The notes under the pieces were generated by a model. It was not told the origin of the DNA, ran no database searches, and saw only the letters and a list, made by a program, of their open reading frames with translations. 64,000 bases of DNA, taken from assembly GCA_046583315.1 (NCBI GenBank), contig JAYGCN010000067.1:1093-65092 (forward strand), given 5' to 3'. The number at the start of each line of letters is the position of its first letter. Within the stretch, counting starts at the first letter, position 1. Positions 21,984-58,636 of the stretch are shown here, piece by piece. The translations under genes were made by a program, and so were the position numbers. Source of the stretch: Candidatus Hydrogenedentota bacterium. Its GTDB lineage: Bacteria; Hydrogenedentota; Hydrogenedentia; Hydrogenedentales; GCA-2746185.

Positions 21984-23330
21984 CTAGCTGTTGCCGTCCG
22001 CCGCCGGGCGTTGCCCCGGATTGTAGACGTACACCTGATTGCCACCCGCTCGTTTGGCTTCGTACATCATGGAATCGGTGTATCGCATGAAATCTTTGGC
22101 AGTTGATCGGTTATCGTAGGTCATCAGTCCCAGGCTCAAGGTCAACAGATCAAAACGCCGGGCTTCGAAGGTTCGAATGATACGCTTGGCGACGCGCAAT
22201 GCCTGTTCTTCTCCCGCTTCAGGAAGGATGATCGTAAATTCATCGCCGCCGTAGCGAAATCCCATATCGACGCTCTCACGCGTGCATTCGTGAATGACTT
22301 TGCCGACTTCGACCAGCACGTGGTCTCCCTCAAGGTGCCCGCGAAAGTCGTTGTACGATTTGAACTTGTCTACATCCACCAACAGCAGCGACAATCCTCG
22401 GCCCTGACGTTTGGCACGGTCGATTTCCATTTCGATACGTTCGTAGAAGTAACGCACGTTGAACAAGCCCGTGAGGCTGTCACGAATGGTCATTTCTTTG
22501 AGTTCATGCTCAAGACGTTTCTGCTCGGTGATGTCCTTGCAGATGGCCACCATCAACACGGCATTTTCCCGGGAGTCCTGCGCCAACGAAAATGAAATGC
22601 TGACGGGAATCAAGCGACCGTCATGGTGACGCAGTTCGGTCTCAAAATTCTGCAGCGGCCTGTCCATCTCAACCACGCGCCGAAGATAGTGCAATTCCTC
22701 GCTACCGTTGGCCAACAGGGAAGAGTATTTTAGTCCGTCGAACTCTTCCTTGCGGTAACCGAGCATGCGCTGGGCCCCTCGATTGGCAAACTCGATAACA
22801 TCGTTCGTATCCACGGTAATAATGCCGTCGACCGTGCTATCAATAAGATTGTTGAGATATTTCTGGGTGTCTTCAAGCTGAAGGTGAGAAGTTTGCAGTT
22901 CCTGCGTCGCGTCATCTACACGACGTTTAAGCTCTTTTTCCTGTTCGAAAATCCGGCGGATGAGGTTGCGCTTTTCGATTCCCCGATCAATCGCATCGGA
23001 TACTTCGTCCATGTTGAACGGCTTGAGAATATAATCGTCGGCACCGATGCGAATGGAGCGCACGGCGGTCTCGACCTTGGCGGAACCGGTCATGATTACC
23101 ACAACCAACTCGGGTAACAACTGTTTGCCCTGACTGGCCACTTCGAGACCGTCGCTTTCCCCCAGCACGATGTCCGCGATGAGCGCATCAAAGGGGTGGT
23201 GCGACATTTCGGCTATCGCTTCCTTGGCCGTGGTCACGGTCGTGCATCGACACCCCAGCGAAGTCAGATGTTCATCCAGTAAATCGTTTACCGCCTGATC
23301 ATCGTCCAGAATAAGAACCCATGAATCCAT
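21984..23330 (-). CDS. REC-PAS-GGDEF diguanylate cyclase
   Basis: LILDDD/ADIVL/KPF receiver, PAS ending in DITEQK, DSLTGLFN, DVDKFK, RYGGDEF. Confidence 0.93.
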   Translation of the reverse strand: MDSWVLILDDDQAVNDLLDEHLTSLGCRCTTVTTAKEAIAEMSHHPFDALIADIVLGESDGLEVASQGKQLLPELVVVIMTGSAKVETAVRSIRIGADDYILKPFNMDEVSDAIDRGIEKRNLIRRIFEQEKELKRRVDDATQELQTSHLQLEDTQKYLNNLIDSTVDGIITVDTNDVIEFANRGAQRMLGYRKEEFDGLKYSSLLANGSEELHYLRRVVEMDRPLQNFETELRHHDGRLIPVSISFSLAQDSRENAVLMVAICKDITEQKRLEHELKEMTIRDSLTGLFNVRYFYERIEMEIDRAKRQGRGLSLLLVDVDKFKSYNDFRGHLEGDHVLVEVGKVIHECTRESVDMGFRYGGDEFTIILPEAGEEQALRVAKRIIRTFEARRFDLLTLSLGLMTYDNRSTAKDFMRYTDSMMYEAKRAGGNQVYVYNPGQRPAADGNS

Positions 23331-23346
23331 TAAAGAAGCCCCGGAC

Positions 23347-23613
23347 CTAGAGATATTTCATTACAATATACGCGACCGGTATGGAACCCAGCCCTAAACC
23401 CATCTGGAATCTTGTGGGCTTGCCAGTGGCATCCTCATCGTCATCATCGCCGCTGGCCAGAGAGTCTGACACACCGAATTTCGTTGCGGAATTCTTGTCG
23501 TTTTTCTTGATCTCATTGTTATCTTGAGCAAACGTAACAGGCGTGAACATGCCTACACAAAGGCAGCACATTACACACAAGCCCATGATAGCCAACAATT
23601 TATGCGCATTCAT
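23347..23613 (-). CDS. Small hypothetical protein (signal peptide, acidic linker, C-terminal hydrophobic segment)
   Basis: RBS GAGG, signal peptide ending FAQD, 16-nt gap to the downstream DGC. Confidence 0.6.
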   Translation of the reverse strand: MNAHKLLAIMGLCVMCCLCVGMFTPVTFAQDNNEIKKNDKNSATKFGVSDSLASGDDDDEDATGKPTRFQMGLGLGSIPVAYIVMKYL

Positions 23614-50646: not shown

Positions 50647-52062
50647 GTGAACGACTCAACTTTTCAACCCGAACCCGGTTCGTTTCGGGATCGTCTTGGC
50701 CGCGTGTATGTTCGCGAGGATGCCATATACCGTGGCTTGAGCGAGGTCGCTTGGGCCGAGTGGGAACTGCTGGCCAAAACTAAATTCTTTAAGGCGGCCC
50801 TTGAATCAGGTGCGGTAATCCCCACCGAAGAGACGGATGCGATAGACGTCGACACCTCGGATTTACCTGCACCGTGGTCGGGTTATCTTAGACATGAACG
50901 CCTGAGTTTTGTAACCTACGCCTACGAGTGGCCTTTCGACATGCTCAAGGATGCGGCGTTACAGCAACTCGATCTGATGGAACGTGCACTCGCCGAGGAC
51001 ATGGTACTCAAAGATGCCACGCCGTACAACACCGTTTTCCGCGGCGTGCAACCAGTATTCATCGACATCCCCTCTTTCGAAAAACTTAAAGTTGGCGACC
51101 CCTGGATTGGGTATCGCCAATTCTGCGAGATGTTTCTGTATCCGCTGATGTTGCAGGCCTACAAGGACATTCCCTATCGATTTTGGTTGCGTGGACGTGT
51201 GGACGGTATTGACCCGGCGGACTGCAACGCGATGATGTCGCTGCGTGATCTCTTTCGACCGGGCGTGCTGACGAACGTCTACCTCCAGTCGAAGCTCGTC
51301 TCGGCCTTTAGCGACTCGAGTCGATCCATCAAAAAAGAAGTGGCGGACGCGGGATTCTCGAAAGAGCTCATCAAGGTCAACGTCAAGAAGATGAAGAAAC
51401 TCGTGTCGGGACTGACGTGGAACAAGGGCAAGACGGAATGGTCGGATTATGCGCAGACCCACAGCTATGACGACGAGAATTTCGAGAAGAAAATCGATTT
51501 TGTTCGACGCGCTTCCGTCGCCAAACCGCGAAAACTCTCGTGGGATATCGGCTGCAATACGGGTACCTTCTCCAAAATTCTGGCGGAACATGCCGAGACG
51601 GTGGTCGCGATGGATATTGACCCGCTCGCGGTGCAGAAATTGTACAACGAGCTCCGCCACGGCAGCGAGGCACCGAAAAATATCATTCCCATCATCAACA
51701 ACATCGCGGACGCGTCGCCGGGCGTGGGGTGGCGCGGTCTGGAGCGCAAACGACTCGAGGAGCGCGGTCGACCTGACCTGACTATCTGTCTCGCGCTAAT
51801 TCATCATGTCGTCATCAGCGCGCACATCCCGCTGTATCAATTTGTGGCGTGGCTGGCCAGCCTGGGTACGGATCTCGTGATCGAAATGGTCACGAAGGAC
51901 GATGCGATGGTCAAAAAGTTGCTGCTGAATAAAGACGACATCTACAACGACTACGAAGTGGGGTTTCTGGAAGACTGCCTGGCCACGCATTTTGTAGTCG
52001 AGGAGCGGATGCCGTATCACAACGATACGCGAATTCTGTATTACGCGACTCAGAAGAAGTAG
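50647..52062 (+). CDS. Class I SAM-dependent methyltransferase with an N-terminal kinase-like region (NoeA-like)
   Basis: GSFRD, YAYEW, LKDATPYN, FIDIPS, WDIGCNTG, CLALIHH. Confidence 0.8.
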   Translation: MNDSTFQPEPGSFRDRLGRVYVREDAIYRGLSEVAWAEWELLAKTKFFKAALESGAVIPTEETDAIDVDTSDLPAPWSGYLRHERLSFVTYAYEWPFDMLKDAALQQLDLMERALAEDMVLKDATPYNTVFRGVQPVFIDIPSFEKLKVGDPWIGYRQFCEMFLYPLMLQAYKDIPYRFWLRGRVDGIDPADCNAMMSLRDLFRPGVLTNVYLQSKLVSAFSDSSRSIKKEVADAGFSKELIKVNVKKMKKLVSGLTWNKGKTEWSDYAQTHSYDDENFEKKIDFVRRASVAKPRKLSWDIGCNTGTFSKILAEHAETVVAMDIDPLAVQKLYNELRHGSEAPKNIIPIINNIADASPGVGWRGLERKRLEERGRPDLTICLALIHHVVISAHIPLYQFVAWLASLGTDLVIEMVTKDDAMVKKLLLNKDDIYNDYEVGFLEDCLATHFVVEERMPYHNDTRILYYATQKK

Positions 52063-52065
52063 GTA

Positions 52066-52458
52066 CTACTTTTCCTTTTTTTCGTCAGGCTCCACCATGT
52101 CACCAAGTCCCGCAAAAGGATTATGTCCCAACGAACCTTCGTCATGCGCCTCGCGCGTCTTGCCCCCATGAAACCCGCCTTCGCCATCCTGATGCTCGTC
52201 ATCGTGGCAATACAGGCACAACAGTTCCCAGTTGCTTCCGTCGGGAGGATTGTTGTTGTGATCGTGATCTTTATGATGCACGGTTAATTCGCGCAGGGTG
52301 GGCCCGGCGAACTCCCGCCCGCAACGCCCGCACACATGCGGGAACATCGCCATCGCCCGCTCACGGTATCCCTGGCCGCGTTCCGCCTGATACTTTCGCG
52401 CGTTGGCGAGTATTTTCGCCTGTCGTTCTGGGTCTGGTTTTTTTCGAGCTGGGGCCAC
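52066..52458 (-). CDS. yajD: YajD-family HNH nuclease
   Basis: YRERA...PHVCGRCGREF...LRELTVHHKDHDHNNNPPDGSNWELLCLYCHDDEH; start GTG 52458 or TTG 52485. Confidence 0.9.
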   Translation of the reverse strand: MAPARKKPDPERQAKILANARKYQAERGQGYRERAMAMFPHVCGRCGREFAGPTLRELTVHHKDHDHNNNPPDGSNWELLCLYCHDDEHQDGEGGFHGGKTREAHDEGSLGHNPFAGLGDMVEPDEKKEK

Positions 52459-52500
52459 GATTTTATCCTGTGTCGCTTGATACAATTACAGCTATGCGCA

Positions 52501-53259
52501 TCAACTCTCCGGAATTTCTCCACCGACATTTTTGTCCAGAAACACGGTGACCAAATCCGGGTCGAAGTGTTTACCACGCTCGTTTTCGAGATGGCCAAGC
52601 GCGTCTTCTTTTGATGAATGACCAGAGCGGTAGGCACGTGGACTGGTCATGGCGCAGTATACATCAATTATTTTTACGATACGGGCAAGGTACGGGATGT
52701 CGTCCCCTTCGAGTTTGTTCGGATAACCGTCGCCGTCGTAACATTCGTGGTGGCATCGAACGATGTCTTCGATGGGAGAGAGTCCGTGCATCCCGCGAAT
52801 CAGATCGGCCTCGATATTCGTGTGATCTTGTATGTGTTTCCACTCGTCGTAGCTGAGCAGGCCATCCTTGAGCAAGATATCATTGGGTATTTTGAGTTTG
52901 CCGATATCGCGCAACAATGCGCCTCGTTCGAGCACGGTTCGCTGCTCATCGTCCAGATTCAGCGCCCGGGCAAATCGGGTCGCATGCTGCACGACGCGTT
53001 GCGCACTGGTGGGTTCGAAGGATTCGCGACACCCAATCGCTTCGGCTAGTAAATACAGAATGGATTCAGATTGCTCGGCGAGCTGTACGGCCATGGGCAG
53101 GGCATCTTTGACCGATGTGTGGTGTAGCAGACCGTCCGTCAGGTCCGGCAGCAACTCGTCTTCCACGGGAACCAGTTGAATGCCGGAGCTTTTCACCCCT
53201 TTATCCAGTATCTTTTGTGCCTTTTCGTCCTCACCCAGAATTGAAATGCGTTTAAGCAT
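52501..53259 (-). CDS. HD-GYP domain protein with a degenerate HD motif
   Basis: GALLRDIGK (HD->RD), HHECYDGDGYP, RAYR, GKHFDP; start ATG 53259 behind GGGAGG. Confidence 0.88.
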   Translation of the reverse strand: MLKRISILGEDEKAQKILDKGVKSSGIQLVPVEDELLPDLTDGLLHHTSVKDALPMAVQLAEQSESILYLLAEAIGCRESFEPTSAQRVVQHATRFARALNLDDEQRTVLERGALLRDIGKLKIPNDILLKDGLLSYDEWKHIQDHTNIEADLIRGMHGLSPIEDIVRCHHECYDGDGYPNKLEGDDIPYLARIVKIIDVYCAMTSPRAYRSGHSSKEDALGHLENERGKHFDPDLVTVFLDKNVGGEIPES

Positions 53260-53383
53260 TCTTCCCCTCCCAACCAGAAATCGATACGACAGATTCATAC
53301 TACCACCAATTTTGCCAACTCTCCAGCGACACCGTGTTCGCCGTGTTATACTCCTTCTATGTTCGGTGGGGGGATTTGGCTCC

Positions 53384-54820
53384 ATGGCTACTGCAAAACT
53401 ATCCCAAGAAGCGCACGACCGTCGGCGCGATGTTCGCCGTCTTGCCGACGAACCCGTGTACCTATCAGAGGCATCCGGGTGGAGCGACTTATCGATTGGT
53501 ATGTTGCTTGATGCGAGCGAGACCGGAGTGGCCGTATACACCCAAACACCTTTCGCGGTTGGAACGCCGATCGAACTTGAGGTATTTAGCGGTTCTCCCG
53601 TCTCATTGGGCCGCAGCAATGTGATCCACGGGTGTATTCAAAATCTTCGCAACCATCATCGAGGCGGCTATCGTGTGGGACTGACGGTTCAACGCCCGCG
53701 ACCACCCAAGCCCACGCCGACTGTTTCGCGGTCGTCGCAGAGATCGAGTGAATTGGCACGCCCGAATCTAAAACTATATCCGTCAGAAAAGAAAATAGTC
53801 GACGGAGACAGGCGAAAACCCACCGCGAATCGTATTGAGACCGAAGATTCGTTGAAGATGGCGCGCGCGACGCTTCTTGCGATTGCGACACTGGTTTGCC
53901 TTGGAATTTTCACGCTGAATCAAGAGGATACGCGCGTGTATCGCACGGCGAGCGGTGCAGGCGCTGGGCATTACACGCGATCGCCTTCTGATTATGCAGA
54001 ATCATCGATTCCAATTGCTGAGAGCGCGGCATCGCCGACCGGAAATACTCCCGCAGACGCGCAGCCACTTGTGAAGCGCGCCGAGCTGCTTTTACTCAAG
54101 CCAACACGGATCCAGAACGGCGCTCTTCGCAAGGACGACATTCAATCTTCGGATGAGGGCCTGAAATCCGCCGACGACAAACCGATAGACGATTCGGAGT
54201 TACCGATTTCGCCTGGCTATTCCCGGGATGTGACGGCCTTGCATTCGGAACCCGGCCAAATATCGCCATCGGGCGCTTTCCCGACGCGTCCAAGGGATTT
54301 TCGGAGCGTGTCGCACGCGGTACAACTGCAAGAACTCGACTTCACCGCGTCACCATCCATGATGCAGAATTGGATTCCGCTCAGTGCAACGCTTGCGTCC
54401 AGGTTCATCGACGCACCAGTGGTTCTCTACGTGGACACGACCAATTTTGTGATGCACGTGGTGCGCAATGGTGATAAAGTCTGGCAGTTTCCTGTCGGGC
54501 TGGGTTATGCGGACTCTACGCCCCACGGCGTTTTTTCACTGGGCACGAAGCTGATCGATCCCACCTGGTACAACAATGGGAATCCCGTGCCAGCAGGTTC
54601 GGATGCCAATCCACTGGGTGACCGCTGGATGGGATTGAGCGATAATGACATTCCCACGCCGATCGGTATTCATCCCACCAGCGTTGCTTCGTCGGTGGGC
54701 CAACCCGCCAGTCGGGGCTGCATTCGTATGCGTCCGGCTGATGCCCATCGCCTGTATGCCATGGTTCCCGCCGACACGCCCGTGATCATCGGAGCAGGTG
54801 CCGTGGCACCAAAGTTGTAG
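53384..54820 (+). CDS. PilZ - TM - L,D-transpeptidase (YkuD) fusion
   Basis: RRRDVRR and DASETG PilZ motifs; TM ATLLAIATLVCLGIF; FPVGLG..STP.G, NPLGDRWMGL, IGIHPT...SRGCIRM. Confidence 0.85.
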   Translation: MATAKLSQEAHDRRRDVRRLADEPVYLSEASGWSDLSIGMLLDASETGVAVYTQTPFAVGTPIELEVFSGSPVSLGRSNVIHGCIQNLRNHHRGGYRVGLTVQRPRPPKPTPTVSRSSQRSSELARPNLKLYPSEKKIVDGDRRKPTANRIETEDSLKMARATLLAIATLVCLGIFTLNQEDTRVYRTASGAGAGHYTRSPSDYAESSIPIAESAASPTGNTPADAQPLVKRAELLLLKPTRIQNGALRKDDIQSSDEGLKSADDKPIDDSELPISPGYSRDVTALHSEPGQISPSGAFPTRPRDFRSVSHAVQLQELDFTASPSMMQNWIPLSATLASRFIDAPVVLYVDTTNFVMHVVRNGDKVWQFPVGLGYADSTPHGVFSLGTKLIDPTWYNNGNPVPAGSDANPLGDRWMGLSDNDIPTPIGIHPTSVASSVGQPASRGCIRMRPADAHRLYAMVPADTPVIIGAGAVAPKL

Positions 54821-54849
54821 GCGGCGGGTCGAATCAGTAGCATACTCTC

Positions 54850-56469
54850 ATGGGAAAATTCATTCACGACATAAAGGAATCCTTTCGGCGGGGGCGTCAG
54901 TTCGTCATGCGCGATGTGTGGCGCATCGGCAGACCCGGGGAAGAATTGCCGTCGGGCTTGTTCATCAAACAGATCCGCGTCGTATTCCTGCTCTTGTCGA
55001 AACTGGTGGACGGAAACATGATGCTGCGGGCGTCCGCGTTGACCTTTGCGACATTGTTGTCTGTCGTTCCCCTGCTGGCGGTCACCTTCTACATCATTCA
55101 GACCTTCAATCTTGGCGAAAGCCTTTACACAAACATGCAGGACAAGCTGGAAGATTTTATTGTCGTCTCGGCGGAGAAAGTGCCGGGCTTAAGTTCGGAA
55201 CCAACACCAATCGACGAGGTGCCTGTCGAGCTTGTTCCGGAAAAAGTCCCGCCAGTCGAAGAGCCGGTGCCTGACATTGAGGTACAGGATGACCCCGATA
55301 CGCCGGAGGATGAATCTGCGGTCGAGCCGGAGGACAAGGATCAGCAGCTTCAGCAACAATTTGTTCAATCCATATTCCAGGGTGTTGGCAGTCAGAATGA
55401 GGACATGGAAGACCCGGTCGTGTGGCTGGTCGATCTGGCAAATGACATGGCGGCACTGGCCGATGAAGCCGCCAAAAATACCGCCGCCTTCGGGTTGTCC
55501 ACCCTCCTCCTGGTATTCACGACGGTGTTCGGATTGATGCGGAACATCGAAAAATCGTTCAACAGTATCTGGGGCGTACGACGAACCCGATCCTGGTATC
55601 GCATGATTAGCGATTATGTGATGATCACCTTGCTAATTCCCTTCGTAATGGCTGGTGTATTGGGCGTGACCGGCGCATTATCGAGCGAACGCATCGTGGA
55701 GGCGCTGGGACCGCTTTCCTACGGCCTCCAATTCGTACAATATTTCCTGATTGTACTCGTGTTTTCGTCTCTGTATTACGTCGTGCCCAATACCCGCGTG
55801 CGATACGGCTACGCACTATTCGGCGGCGTCATCGCAGGCGCACTTTGGATATTGCTGTCGTGGACCTACATCAACTTCCAGATCGGACTTGCCCGTTATC
55901 AAGCGGTTCTTTCCGTGTTCGCGCAATTTCCGATGCTGCTCATGTGGGTTTATTCCAGTTGGGCAATCGTTCTTTTCGGATCGGAAATCACCTACGCGTA
56001 CCAGAACGAAAAAACATTTACGATGGAACGATTCGCGGATAACGCGAGTTTTGCGTATCGCGCCGCGCTTGGACTTCGTGCGATGATTGAACTGGGACGC
56101 CGATTTCAGGAGAGCGCGCCGAGTCTGCAACCCGAAGCAGCCGCGCTTGAGTGGAATGTGCCTAGTCGTCTGGTCCGGGAGACGCTGGAACGATTAGAGG
56201 AATCGGGATTCATCGCCGAATGCGCAACCGATCCGGTGAGTTATCAGCCAGCCCGGCCTCTGGACAAAATCACCGCGGGCGATATTCTTCAATCGCTGCA
56301 TGAACGGGGCGAGGATCCTTCGCTGTTTCTGCAGGATGAAGCCTTCAAGCCCTTGTACGACGAATTTTTGCGGCCGACTGATGGTGTACACCGAACGACC
56401 ATCGCCGAATTGATCAAACGGGTCGCCGAACAAAAAGAATCCTCAGTCGACGAGGAAACCCATGCCTGA
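54850..56469 (+). CDS. YihY/virulence factor BrkB-family membrane protein with a C-terminal wHTH
   Basis: ASALTFATLLSVVP, IEKSFNSIW, YYVVPN, WAIVLFGSEI, Rrf2-like YQPARPLDKIT tail. Confidence 0.88.
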   Translation: MGKFIHDIKESFRRGRQFVMRDVWRIGRPGEELPSGLFIKQIRVVFLLLSKLVDGNMMLRASALTFATLLSVVPLLAVTFYIIQTFNLGESLYTNMQDKLEDFIVVSAEKVPGLSSEPTPIDEVPVELVPEKVPPVEEPVPDIEVQDDPDTPEDESAVEPEDKDQQLQQQFVQSIFQGVGSQNEDMEDPVVWLVDLANDMAALADEAAKNTAAFGLSTLLLVFTTVFGLMRNIEKSFNSIWGVRRTRSWYRMISDYVMITLLIPFVMAGVLGVTGALSSERIVEALGPLSYGLQFVQYFLIVLVFSSLYYVVPNTRVRYGYALFGGVIAGALWILLSWTYINFQIGLARYQAVLSVFAQFPMLLMWVYSSWAIVLFGSEITYAYQNEKTFTMERFADNASFAYRAALGLRAMIELGRRFQESAPSLQPEAAALEWNVPSRLVRETLERLEESGFIAECATDPVSYQPARPLDKITAGDILQSLHERGEDPSLFLQDEAFKPLYDEFLRPTDGVHRTTIAELIKRVAEQKESSVDEETHA

Positions 56470-58636
56470 CGAAGGGCAGTCAGGAAGTCAGGATGTGTTC
56501 CCCGGATCGAGTCAGGCAGAGGCCGAGGGCATTGTCGAGCGCATCGTGTATGAAAATCCGGATAACGGATTCATGGTGGCCCGGCTGCGCATCGATGGGC
56601 AGCACGATCTGGTCACCTTTGTCGGCTCGCTGATGGCCGTGTCTCCGGGTGAGACCATTCAGATTATCGGCGAGTGGATTGATGACAAGAAATTCGGAAA
56701 ACAGATTCGTGTCACGAACTACAAGACCGTGCTGCCGAACTCCCTGATCGGTATCGAGAAATACCTGGGTTCGGGCCTGATCCACGGCATCGGTCCGGCG
56801 TATGCGGAACGCCTCATCAAAGCCTTCGGCATCGAAACACTCAAGGTCATCGATGAGCAACCCGAACGGCTGCGCACGGTGGAGGGTATTGGCCCCAAAC
56901 GAGCTTCGCAAATCCGGGAAGCGTGGTCGGATCAGAAAAATATTCAATCGATCATGGTCTTCTTGCAGGGCCACGGCATCGGCACGAATCAGGCCGTGAA
57001 AATTTACAAAAAATATGGGGACGGTGCCGTGACGGTGCTGCGTGACAATCCCTATCGCCTGATCGATGACATTTCAGGAATCGGGTTCGCCGGAGCCGAC
57101 AAGGTTGCTACGAATCTGGGCCTCGCGACAAACTCCCCCACGCGCATCGCGGCAGGCATCAATTTTTGTCTCAGGCAGATGGTCAGCGAGGGCCACACTT
57201 TCGGGTATCGGGCCGAATTGGTGTCGGATGCGGAAAAACTGTTGAGTGTTTCCGAGGAATTGGTGCTCCAACGACTCGACGCGATGGTGCATGACCGCGA
57301 ACTCCAATCTGAGGAGGACCGAATTTTTCTGCACGACTTGTACGACGAAGAATCGGATTGCGCCCACCATTTGAAGCGCATCTTTGAGGGCCCCAAGGAA
57401 ACAGTAACCGATAGGGTAGATATAGCACTGAAATGGGTGGAGAAAAAGCAGAATATCGCGTTGTCGGACGAACAAAAAGAGGCGCTGCGCACCGCTGTGG
57501 ACGCGCCGGTTATGGTGATTACGGGCGGACCGGGCACGGGAAAGACGACACTCATCAATAGCATCCTCGCGGTGTATCAACGGAAGAATTTTTCACTACT
57601 CTTGGCAGCACCCACGGGTCGCGCCGCAAAACGCATGGAAGTCACGACTGGCCACGAAGCGAAAACCATCCATCGTCTCCTGGAATTCAACCCCAAGATA
57701 CACGATTTCAACCGAAATCAGTTCAACCCACTCGATGCCGACGTAATCGTCATCGATGAAATGTCGATGGTGGATATCCATCTGATGGCGAGTGTGCTCA
57801 AGGCCATTCCGGATGAGGCGCGGCTCTTGCTCGTGGGCGATGTCGACCAGTTGCCCTCCGTTGGACCCGGCAATGTGCTTATGGACATCATCGCGTCGAC
57901 GGTGGTTCCGACCGTGCGTCTGAAAACTGTGTTCCGTCAAGCAGCAGAGAGCGGAATTATTTCGAACGCGCATCGCATCAATACCGGCGACATGCCTGAA
58001 TGGAACACGACCGATTTCTTTTTCGTGGAACGCAACGAGCCGGAGGCGGTTCGTGATACGGTGATCGAACTCGTGGCAAATCGCATTCCCAAAAAATTCC
58101 GCTTTGACCCGTGGAAAGATATCCAGGTGCTATCTCCGATGCATCGCGGTGAGGCGGGTGTTGCGAATCTGAATACCTATTTGCAGGAGGCACTCAATCC
58201 GGATGGACACCCGATCCCGCGCAAGGGCTTCCGCGTCGGCGACAAGGTTATTCAAACCCGTAACAACTACGAACTCGACGTGTACAACGGCGATGTCGGT
58301 CGAATTACCGTTGTGTCTGAGGAAGTAAAGGAACTTCACGTGGAGTTCGAGGACCGAACGGCACTATACACCTTTGACGACATGGACGATCTCAACCTGG
58401 CCTACGCGATCACGGTGCACAAATCACAGGGGAGCGAGTATCCCGCGCTGGTTATACCCCTGGCGAGTCAGCACTATCTGATGCTACAGCGGAACATCTT
58501 CTACACGGCCATCACGCGAGGAAAATCGCTGGTCGTGATTGTGGGCGACACCAAAGCACTTCGCCGGGCACTGAGCAATACCGATGTAAGCCGCCGCAAT
58601 ACGCGATTGGCCGAGCGGTTGCGGGGCACGACCTAA
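56462..58636 (+). CDS. recD2: ATP-dependent RecD2-like SF1B DNA helicase
   Basis: KYLGSGLIHGIG (HhH), ITGGPGTGKTT, APTGRAAKR, DEMSM, GDVDQLPSVGPG, YAITVHKSQGSE, YTAITR. Confidence 0.95.
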   Translation: MPDEGQSGSQDVFPGSSQAEAEGIVERIVYENPDNGFMVARLRIDGQHDLVTFVGSLMAVSPGETIQIIGEWIDDKKFGKQIRVTNYKTVLPNSLIGIEKYLGSGLIHGIGPAYAERLIKAFGIETLKVIDEQPERLRTVEGIGPKRASQIREAWSDQKNIQSIMVFLQGHGIGTNQAVKIYKKYGDGAVTVLRDNPYRLIDDISGIGFAGADKVATNLGLATNSPTRIAAGINFCLRQMVSEGHTFGYRAELVSDAEKLLSVSEELVLQRLDAMVHDRELQSEEDRIFLHDLYDEESDCAHHLKRIFEGPKETVTDRVDIALKWVEKKQNIALSDEQKEALRTAVDAPVMVITGGPGTGKTTLINSILAVYQRKNFSLLLAAPTGRAAKRMEVTTGHEAKTIHRLLEFNPKIHDFNRNQFNPLDADVIVIDEMSMVDIHLMASVLKAIPDEARLLLVGDVDQLPSVGPGNVLMDIIASTVVPTVRLKTVFRQAAESGIISNAHRINTGDMPEWNTTDFFFVERNEPEAVRDTVIELVANRIPKKFRFDPWKDIQVLSPMHRGEAGVANLNTYLQEALNPDGHPIPRKGFRVGDKVIQTRNNYELDVYNGDVGRITVVSEEVKELHVEFEDRTALYTFDDMDDLNLAYAITVHKSQGSEYPALVIPLASQHYLMLQRNIFYTAITRGKSLVVIVGDTKALRRALSNTDVSRRNTRLAERLRGTT

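Follow-up and report, generated by a model that had tools for sequence, protein, structure and literature searches.

Cyclic di-GMP (c-di-GMP) controls motility, adhesins, exopolysaccharides and development, and for the PilZ proteins BcsA and YcgR the controlled activity (glycosyltransferase and flagellar motor, respectively) is cytoplasmic or lies within the membrane. LapD is a degenerate GGDEF-EAL receptor with a HAMP domain and two transmembrane (TM) helices that controls a separate protease, LapG, by sequestration. L,D-transpeptidases alter the chemistry of the wall, how the envelope is tethered and how susceptible cells are to beta-lactams; the known ones are secreted, are lipoproteins or carry LysM or peptidoglycan-binding domains, and their post-translational regulation is, to our knowledge, poorly understood. 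Alg44, the alginate co-polymerase of Pseudomonas aeruginosa, is a further PilZ protein, which we take to have a single-TM topology. In a PilZ survey it is described as a PilZ domain fused with an HlyD-family protein (10.1101/814665), and a study of Sinorhizobium reports that RgsP and RgsM, a c-di-GMP phosphodiesterase-type receptor and a wall metallopeptidase, are needed for polar growth (PMC6107284). In this study, we describe a gene in a 64,000-nucleotide stretch of contig JAYGCN010000067.1 from a Candidatus Hydrogenedentota bacterium (the window; all positions without a contig name refer to it) in which a PilZ domain and a YkuD domain are joined in one protein, and we establish the domain identities, folds, catalytic and ligand-binding motifs, topology, conservation and gene context of this fusion. 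Sequence comparison and structure modelling confirm the gene as encoding a membrane-anchored L,D-transpeptidase-type enzyme with a cytoplasmic PilZ c-di-GMP receptor domain, its function being predicted. The features of the gene are as follows.

53384..54820, + strand: whole gene, PilZ, TM helix, disordered tether and YkuD in that order, 478 amino acids plus stop (open reading frame, Pfam, homologue alignment, AlphaFold model).
53384..53698, + strand: cytoplasmic PilZ beta-barrel, residues 1-105, strands at 19-102 (AlphaFold model, structure matches, Pfam).
53420..53437, + strand: RRxxxR c-di-GMP-binding motif (R13, R14, R18), invariant in the six closest sequences.
53510..53527, + strand: DxSxxG c-di-GMP-binding motif (D43, S45, G48), with S45 and G48 at least 90% conserved in 100 relatives.
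53699..53845, + strand: cytoplasmic juxtamembrane tether, residues 106-154, rich in R, P, S and K (composition; predicted local distance difference test, pLDDT, about 45-68).
53846..53917, + strand: single TM helix, residues 155-178, N-in/C-out (AlphaFold model, positive-inside statistics).
53918..54409, + strand: periplasmic disordered tether, residues 179-342 (pLDDT <50 for residues 184-335).
54410..54817, + strand: periplasmic YkuD L,D-transpeptidase catalytic domain (Pfam, structure matches, alignment with Bacillus subtilis YkuD).

An earlier reading of the DNA made without database searches (the sequence-only reading) had proposed much of this layout, and the analysis bears it out: both PilZ motifs stand intact at the N-terminus, the single helix that it put at about 53860-53920 lies close to that position in the AlphaFold model, the long Ser/Pro/Ala-rich spacer (S 13%, A 11%, P 9%) follows, and the YkuD domain retains its His and Cys. 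In the reading that we favour, the product would be a bitopic inner-membrane enzyme with a PilZ receptor inside and one TM anchor, whose long flexible tether would let the YkuD domain reach the periplasmic peptidoglycan. Binding of c-di-GMP to PilZ would determine the site at which the enzyme works, its partners or its state of assembly. The probable means would be clustering, a change in stability, or recruitment to a partner in the cytoplasm or membrane, and not a conformational change relayed across the membrane. Depending on whether c-di-GMP is high or low, L,D-type cross-linking or the tethering of proteins to the wall would then differ locally. Taken as one statement, a PilZ-TM-tether-YkuD enzyme controlled by c-di-GMP via recruitment, clustering or stability is a proposal towards which the sequence and model evidence, on balance, tips slightly.

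Pfam PF03734 (YkuD) matches the catalytic half of the protein, residues 347-469 covering positions 3 to 146 of the 146-position profile; the score of 75.9 bits (E 6.5e-21) exceeds the cut-off of 23.4. AlphaFold2 models residues 346-470 at a pLDDT of about 96. Structural comparison of residues 343-471 gave Z 16.3 to the L,D-transpeptidase 4xvo_A (root-mean-square deviation, rmsd, 2.7; 119 aligned) and Z 15.8 to B. subtilis YkuD (2mtz_A), Foldseek matched the domain to 4a1i_A at E 1.1e-9, and the family profile matches B. subtilis YkuD and L,D-transpeptidases at E 1.2e-25. NCBIfam returned weak L,D-transpeptidase matches only for the fusion protein; the ESM Atlas gave no usable match by features, and its structure matches were to other YkuD architectures only (LysM-YkuD, TPR-LysM-YkuD). 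A domain scan covering the first 100 of the 129 matches at least 390 amino acids long found YkuD in all 100. In the alignment with B. subtilis YkuD, GIH430PT stands opposite GIHGT and SRGC446IRM opposite SKGCIRM, and the catalytic His430 (nucleotides 54671-54673) and Cys446 (nucleotides 54719-54721) are invariant in 100 relatives. The sequence-only reading had also remarked on HP in place of the usual HG; the HP is there, and as a functional change it was rejected, given that the relatives carry HPT, HGT, HAT or HST at this place. From sequence and model, the YkuD domain of the fusion is predicted to be catalytically competent.

What such a domain would do to the wall is a separate matter, and its output might be something other than 3-3 cross-linking: protein tethering to peptidoglycan, or L,D-carboxypeptidase, endopeptidase or D-amino-acid exchange activity, with c-di-GMP controlling envelope tethering. 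The YkuD fold is shared by Csd6, Pgp2, DpaA, Bd1075 and the Tlde1a effector (Z 7.7-13.0), and the fusion family, unlike the second L,D-transpeptidase of the same genome, lacks LysM and PG_binding domains, none of which was found by Pfam in the fusion protein or the scanned relatives. It speaks against such an output that B. subtilis YkuD and mycobacterial and enterococcal L,D-transpeptidases are the nearest matches in sequence and structure, a likeness that does not settle substrate or product. We consider a non-cross-linking output possible though rather doubtful; it concerns the output alone and is compatible with the sensing part of the c-di-GMP-controlled enzyme that we favour.

On the sensing side, the AlphaFold2 model, built on 100 relatives, folds the N-terminal domain as a PilZ barrel, six-stranded, at residues 19-102 and with a pLDDT of about 90 or more. 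In an exhaustive structural comparison, residues 11-104 match PA0012 with bound c-di-GMP (8u0i_A) at Z 12.8 (rmsd 1.7, 83/85 aligned), followed by VCA0042 (Z 11.2), the PilZ domain of BcsA (4p00_A residues 579-676, Z 10.8) and YcgR (5y6f_A, Z 10.6); further PilZ structures (MotI, CeSA, PP4397, MrkH, PlzA, Alg44) match at Z 9-11, and unrelated barrels begin at about Z 8. Foldseek placed BcsA with c-di-GMP, at E 7.2e-6, amid the L,D-transpeptidase matches of the fusion protein. Profile searches against the sequences of the PDB are fainter: with the N-terminal domain nothing significant was found, the best PilZ-bearing match being BcsA at E 0.99 with both motifs in register, and the full-length profile reached BcsA residues 575-742 at E 0.046 only. 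Pfam, which puts YkuD above its cut-off, leaves PilZ (PF07238, residues 12-73, E 8.2e-4) below it when the window's protein is taken alone (20.1 bits against 22.5), though PilZ is matched in 86 of the 100 scanned relatives at E<=1e-3 (best 1.3e-13), so the N-terminal domain that the sequence-only reading described is one that homologues retain.

By definition, the PilZ motifs are an RxxxR just N-terminal to the barrel and a (D/N)xSxxG about 30 residues later, and the first of these agrees with the consensus of the relatives. The fusion protein carries D-RRRDVR-R and D43-A-S45-E-T-G48. Among six sequences that are 28-37% identical overall, R13, R14, R18, S45 and G48 make up five of the 13 invariant N-terminal columns, and since so many of the invariant columns are motif residues the motifs are more than chance. 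Together with the modelled fold and its ligand-bound matches, they lead us to infer that the PilZ domain binds c-di-GMP.

A search of 1.84 billion representative sequences gave 54 matches at E<=1e-30, mostly of 430-560 amino acids with two matched stretches. The 18 best complete loci among species genomes are almost all labelled Candidatus Hydrogenedentota; 12 of them carry both PilZ motifs and six have a homologous barrel from which both motifs are lost. In 25 examined YkuD loci of non-Hydrogenedentota type (Planctomycetota, Armatimonadota, Bacillota and others), drawn from the 80 best loci, the PilZ motif pair is absent, in a search seeded on YkuD motifs that unrelated fusions could escape. 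Within the window's phylum, an N-domain match at E<=1e-12 was found in 78 of 135 genomes, 73 of these matches lying in open frames of 418-569 amino acids, so that the long form is present in at least 73/135 genomes. A complete reading frame with PilZ-like domain, TM segment and YkuD was seen in 28 of 30 fetched loci, the other two being cut by contig ends. In a gene tree of 32 reading frames plus an outgroup, the branching roughly tracks taxonomic families. As judged from the sequences, the PilZ-YkuD fusion is a vertically inherited family across one uncultured marine phylum, with Candidatus Hydrogenedentota as its named relatives.

Eight of the 28 full loci, all of one genus, have lost both RxxxR and DxSxxG and kept the barrel; in the tree they form one clade with support 100, and the other 24 of the 32 frames are canonical. 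Motif-less copies were seen at L094-L096, L099, L101, L102, L105 and L108, and also at L016, L018-L020, L023 and L024. Because this clade keeps the barrel, the barrel does something besides ligand binding, most simply protein contact, which would fit recruitment and would equally suit a ligand-independent adaptor. The clade is also a natural, built-in negative control.

Such an adaptor is the core of a second alternative, in which the PilZ barrel is an interaction or anchoring module independent of c-di-GMP, the enzyme is a constitutive membrane L,D-transpeptidase and the motifs in the window's copy are relics. A whole genus living with a motif-less barrel is what this alternative would expect, and the sub-threshold Pfam score in the window's protein and the fast divergence of the PilZ region (27% identity within the genus) point the same way. 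Set against this, the motif residues persist within that fast-diverging domain (R13, R14 and R18 with S45 and G48 in the six closest sequences, the last two widely beyond them), motif loss maps to one branch of the tree, and the conserved c-di-GMP gene neighbours described below would be hard to explain otherwise. We regard it as unlikely that the barrel is indifferent to c-di-GMP, and return to the favoured reading of a c-di-GMP-controlled enzyme, which further requires that receptor and enzyme face different compartments.

One TM segment is predicted in 121 of 129 full-length relatives and a signal-like N-terminus in only one of the 129; the fusion protein itself has no N-terminal signal-like segment. 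The mean number of K plus R in the 15 residues before the helix is 3.85, against 1.65 after it, and the N-side exceeds the C-side in 104 of 127 relatives. Given these positive-inside statistics, the one TM segment and the lack of an N-terminal signal, PilZ would be cytoplasmic and YkuD periplasmic, and we conclude from sequence and model that the two domains are on opposite sides of the membrane, as the sequence-only reading had supposed. AlphaFold2 assigns no confident structure to residues 121-150 and 184-335, in the two tethers. The sequence of the TM helix is poorly conserved in the consensus of 100 relatives, and the fusion protein has no Pfam match at E<=1 to HAMP, GGDEF-EAL or another transducer domain. 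In most relatives, by consensus, the stretch that separates the TM helix from YkuD includes a conserved helical module of TPR-like type; four of 100 reach the Pfam TPR models, and in the closest relative, P0002, it appears as three confident helices at residues 261-319. The window's copy is without this three-helix module, having neither consensus residues nor predicted structure there, and its tether is of normal length (160 amino acids, against a median of 163 in relatives).

These features count against direct inside-out allostery, the form in which the sequence-only reading had a signal pass to the active site. In such a switch, c-di-GMP-bound PilZ would change the shape of the TM helix, or the way in which it dimerises, and so turn the periplasmic enzyme on or off, as LapD does for LapG. 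This would fit the topology and could use the helical module of most relatives (not of the window's protein) as transducer or autoinhibitor, yet with a single, poorly conserved helix, cytoplasmic and periplasmic tethers of 49 and 164 amino acids both predicted disordered, no HAMP or comparable domain by Pfam, and not even the helical module in the window's copy, we think it improbable. Recruitment or clustering is preferred to allostery in view of the predicted disorder in both tethers, the lack of conservation in the TM helix and the absence of any transducer domain.

The reading frame itself was also considered. A longer frame from 53180 exists, and this start was rejected: in four of the five closest homologues (P0002, P0003, P0005, P0006) the N-terminus lines up with the Met at 53384, and the added stretch would run over part of the HD-GYP gene, which lies upstream and divergent. 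For these two reasons the Met at 53384 was taken as the start. An assembly chimera was ruled out, as the architecture is shared by 28 of the 30 independent loci; the G+C content across the region is unremarkable. A scan of 53150-56700 for promoters and terminators gave counts no higher than in shuffled sequence (3 against 2.3 and 4 against 3.6). For window positions 53200-55400, no RNA datasets were listed, and five marine or seawater DNA runs contain at least half of its words.

The neighbours of the fusion gene are an HD-GYP, an HNH, a YihY/BrkB and a RecD2 gene, and no polysaccharide-synthesis genes were found near it. Two of these genes, and a gene group elsewhere in the same genome, are listed here.

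54850..56469, + strand: YihY/BrkB-family membrane protein, 29 nucleotides after the fusion stop (Pfam Virul_fac_BrkB, E 1.7e-43).
52501..53259, - strand: divergent HD-GYP-family gene (RD-GYP), with an alternative start at 53298 (Pfam HD_5, E 3.8e-31).
Contig L118 (G000:C6) of the same genome, 378-4394: Ser/Thr kinase, TM-TPR-LysM-YkuD and GAF-GGDEF cyclase on one strand.

In 15 of the 20 best related loci the YihY/BrkB gene comes next downstream in the same orientation, one of the remaining five having too little downstream sequence to tell, and it also directly follows the fusion gene in L122 and L124. Complex prediction for the YihY/BrkB protein with fusion residues 1-190 gave a score of 0.00, which speaks neither for nor against binding. 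The YihY/BrkB protein has a long acidic Pro/Glu/Asp-rich insert at about residues 100-190 (by eye); past the Pfam match, its C-terminus is extended by about 140 amino acids, and this extension is conserved.

In the RD-GYP protein the His of the 'HD' pair is replaced by Arg (LLRDIGK, against PMHDIGK in the HD-GYP structure 4mcw_A) and HHExxDGxGYP is intact; the same Arg occurs in four of five adjacent orthologues. Such a protein may have reduced phosphodiesterase activity or serve as a c-di-GMP sensor. An HD-GYP-type orthologue (48-54% identity) is divergently adjacent to the fusion in six of 12 same-family fusion-bearing genomes, from four genera. Adjacency as a phylum-wide trait was rejected, since only one family shows it. 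A small HNH endonuclease gene at 52066-52485 (- strand) adjoins the RD-GYP gene, and a copy 68% identical holds the same position in a same-genus genome (L120 3276-3644). Beyond it, 50647-52062 (+ strand) encodes a 471-amino-acid protein with a weak methyltransferase match below Pfam cut-offs; a homologue, 34% identical, lies upstream of the fusion gene in L014.

The genome holds eight GGDEF and seven other PilZ matches as well as two other YkuD genes. A GGDEF domain in a 457-amino-acid frame lies in the window at about 22035-22487 (- strand; contig 23127-23579), about 31 kb from the fusion. The second L,D-transpeptidase of the genome, TM-TPR-LysM-YkuD, is followed after 114 nucleotides by the GAF-GGDEF gene (GGEEF and RxxD by eye). 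Of 61 genomes sampled from the order, 59 had the enzyme, and in 47 of these 59 a GAF-GGDEF orthologue is directly downstream on the same contig and strand (manual count). That this pair is order-wide suggests a coupling of wall remodelling to c-di-GMP that belongs to the lineage and did not arise by chance in a single fusion. The genome's third YkuD protein (L119, G000:C245, 2012-3796, - strand, 594 amino acids) has a signal-like N-terminus and a rhamnosidase-C-like region before its catalytic domain (SSHGCIRL).

Several points weigh against the favoured reading. The reaction type of the YkuD domain cannot be told from its sequence, the partner or site to which PilZ would recruit the enzyme is putative, and binding and catalysis are predicted for every member of the family. 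The PilZ Pfam match, besides falling short of the cut-off, spans profile positions 1-57 of 102 only, and 14 of the 100 scanned relatives have no PilZ match at E<=1e-3. One genus has dispensed with both motifs. At the level of the window's own protein, identity between the PilZ region and that of a same-genus homologue (which retains both motifs too) is only 27%, the copy sits on a long branch with 1.8 changes per column, and the periplasmic helical module of its relatives is lost; given this loss, the copy may be under relaxed or altered selection. Finally, no HD-GYP gene was seen next to the fusion in 20 loci from other families.

It is tempting to place the fusion in a wider frame. The cyclase co-transcribed with a housekeeping L,D-transpeptidase, the PilZ-YkuD fusion and, in one family, RD-GYP could form a phylum-wide, dedicated c-di-GMP-to-wall circuit in which the second messenger sets the place and amount of L,D-type cross-linking or tethering. 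We offer this tentatively, as a possibility that the evidence does not yet bring to even chances. If it were true, the fusion would be the first peptidoglycan enzyme known with its own second-messenger receptor. The receptor-enzyme fusion also lends itself to direct testing, because its soluble domains can be produced and assayed one at a time.

The sequence-only reading knew of no characterised protein with this architecture, and the open literature agrees: a full-text search, with subscription journals outside its coverage, found no paper describing a fusion of PilZ with YkuD or an L,D-transpeptidase and none in which c-di-GMP is read by a peptidoglycan enzyme. A YkuD passage in PMC6416229 concerns a spoT gene cluster. 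The PilZ survey (10.1101/814665) mentions neither transpeptidase nor YkuD nor peptidoglycan, an effector review (PMC12564702) contains none of the terms peptidoglycan, transpeptidase, inside-out and cell wall, and the phylum name combined with c-di-GMP found only unrelated literature.

PilZ effectors as such are known, and by sequence and model the fusion is one in which a periplasmic wall enzyme serves as the output domain. It shares with BcsA and YcgR the PilZ barrel with RxxxR and DxSxxG and differs from them in having its output domain across the membrane. With B. subtilis YkuD, Ldtfm, LdtMt2 and LdtMs it has in common the catalytic fold (Z 15-16) and the His and S-x-G-C-I-R-M motif, and unlike these L,D-transpeptidases it has a cytoplasmic sensor domain and no peptidoglycan-binding domain. 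RgsP and RgsM, unlike the fusion, are separate proteins with other domains, without PilZ and without a YkuD fusion. The concept of cytoplasmic c-di-GMP controlling a periplasmic enzyme, proposed here for the fusion, is that of LapD and LapG; unlike LapD, the fusion would combine receptor and enzyme in one chain with disordered tethers, and has neither HAMP nor GGDEF-EAL. Alg44 resembles it in having an N-terminal cytoplasmic PilZ domain, one TM helix and a periplasmic C-terminal part, and the Alg44 PilZ domain with c-di-GMP (4rt0_A) matches fusion residues 11-108 at Z 9.0. The two differ in that the periplasmic part of the fusion is a YkuD enzyme and not an HlyD/MFP-like scaffold, that no polysaccharide-synthesis operon lies beside its gene, and that its target would be the wall and not a secreted polymer. 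After Alg44, the fusion would be a second case in which a PilZ domain acts across the inner membrane.

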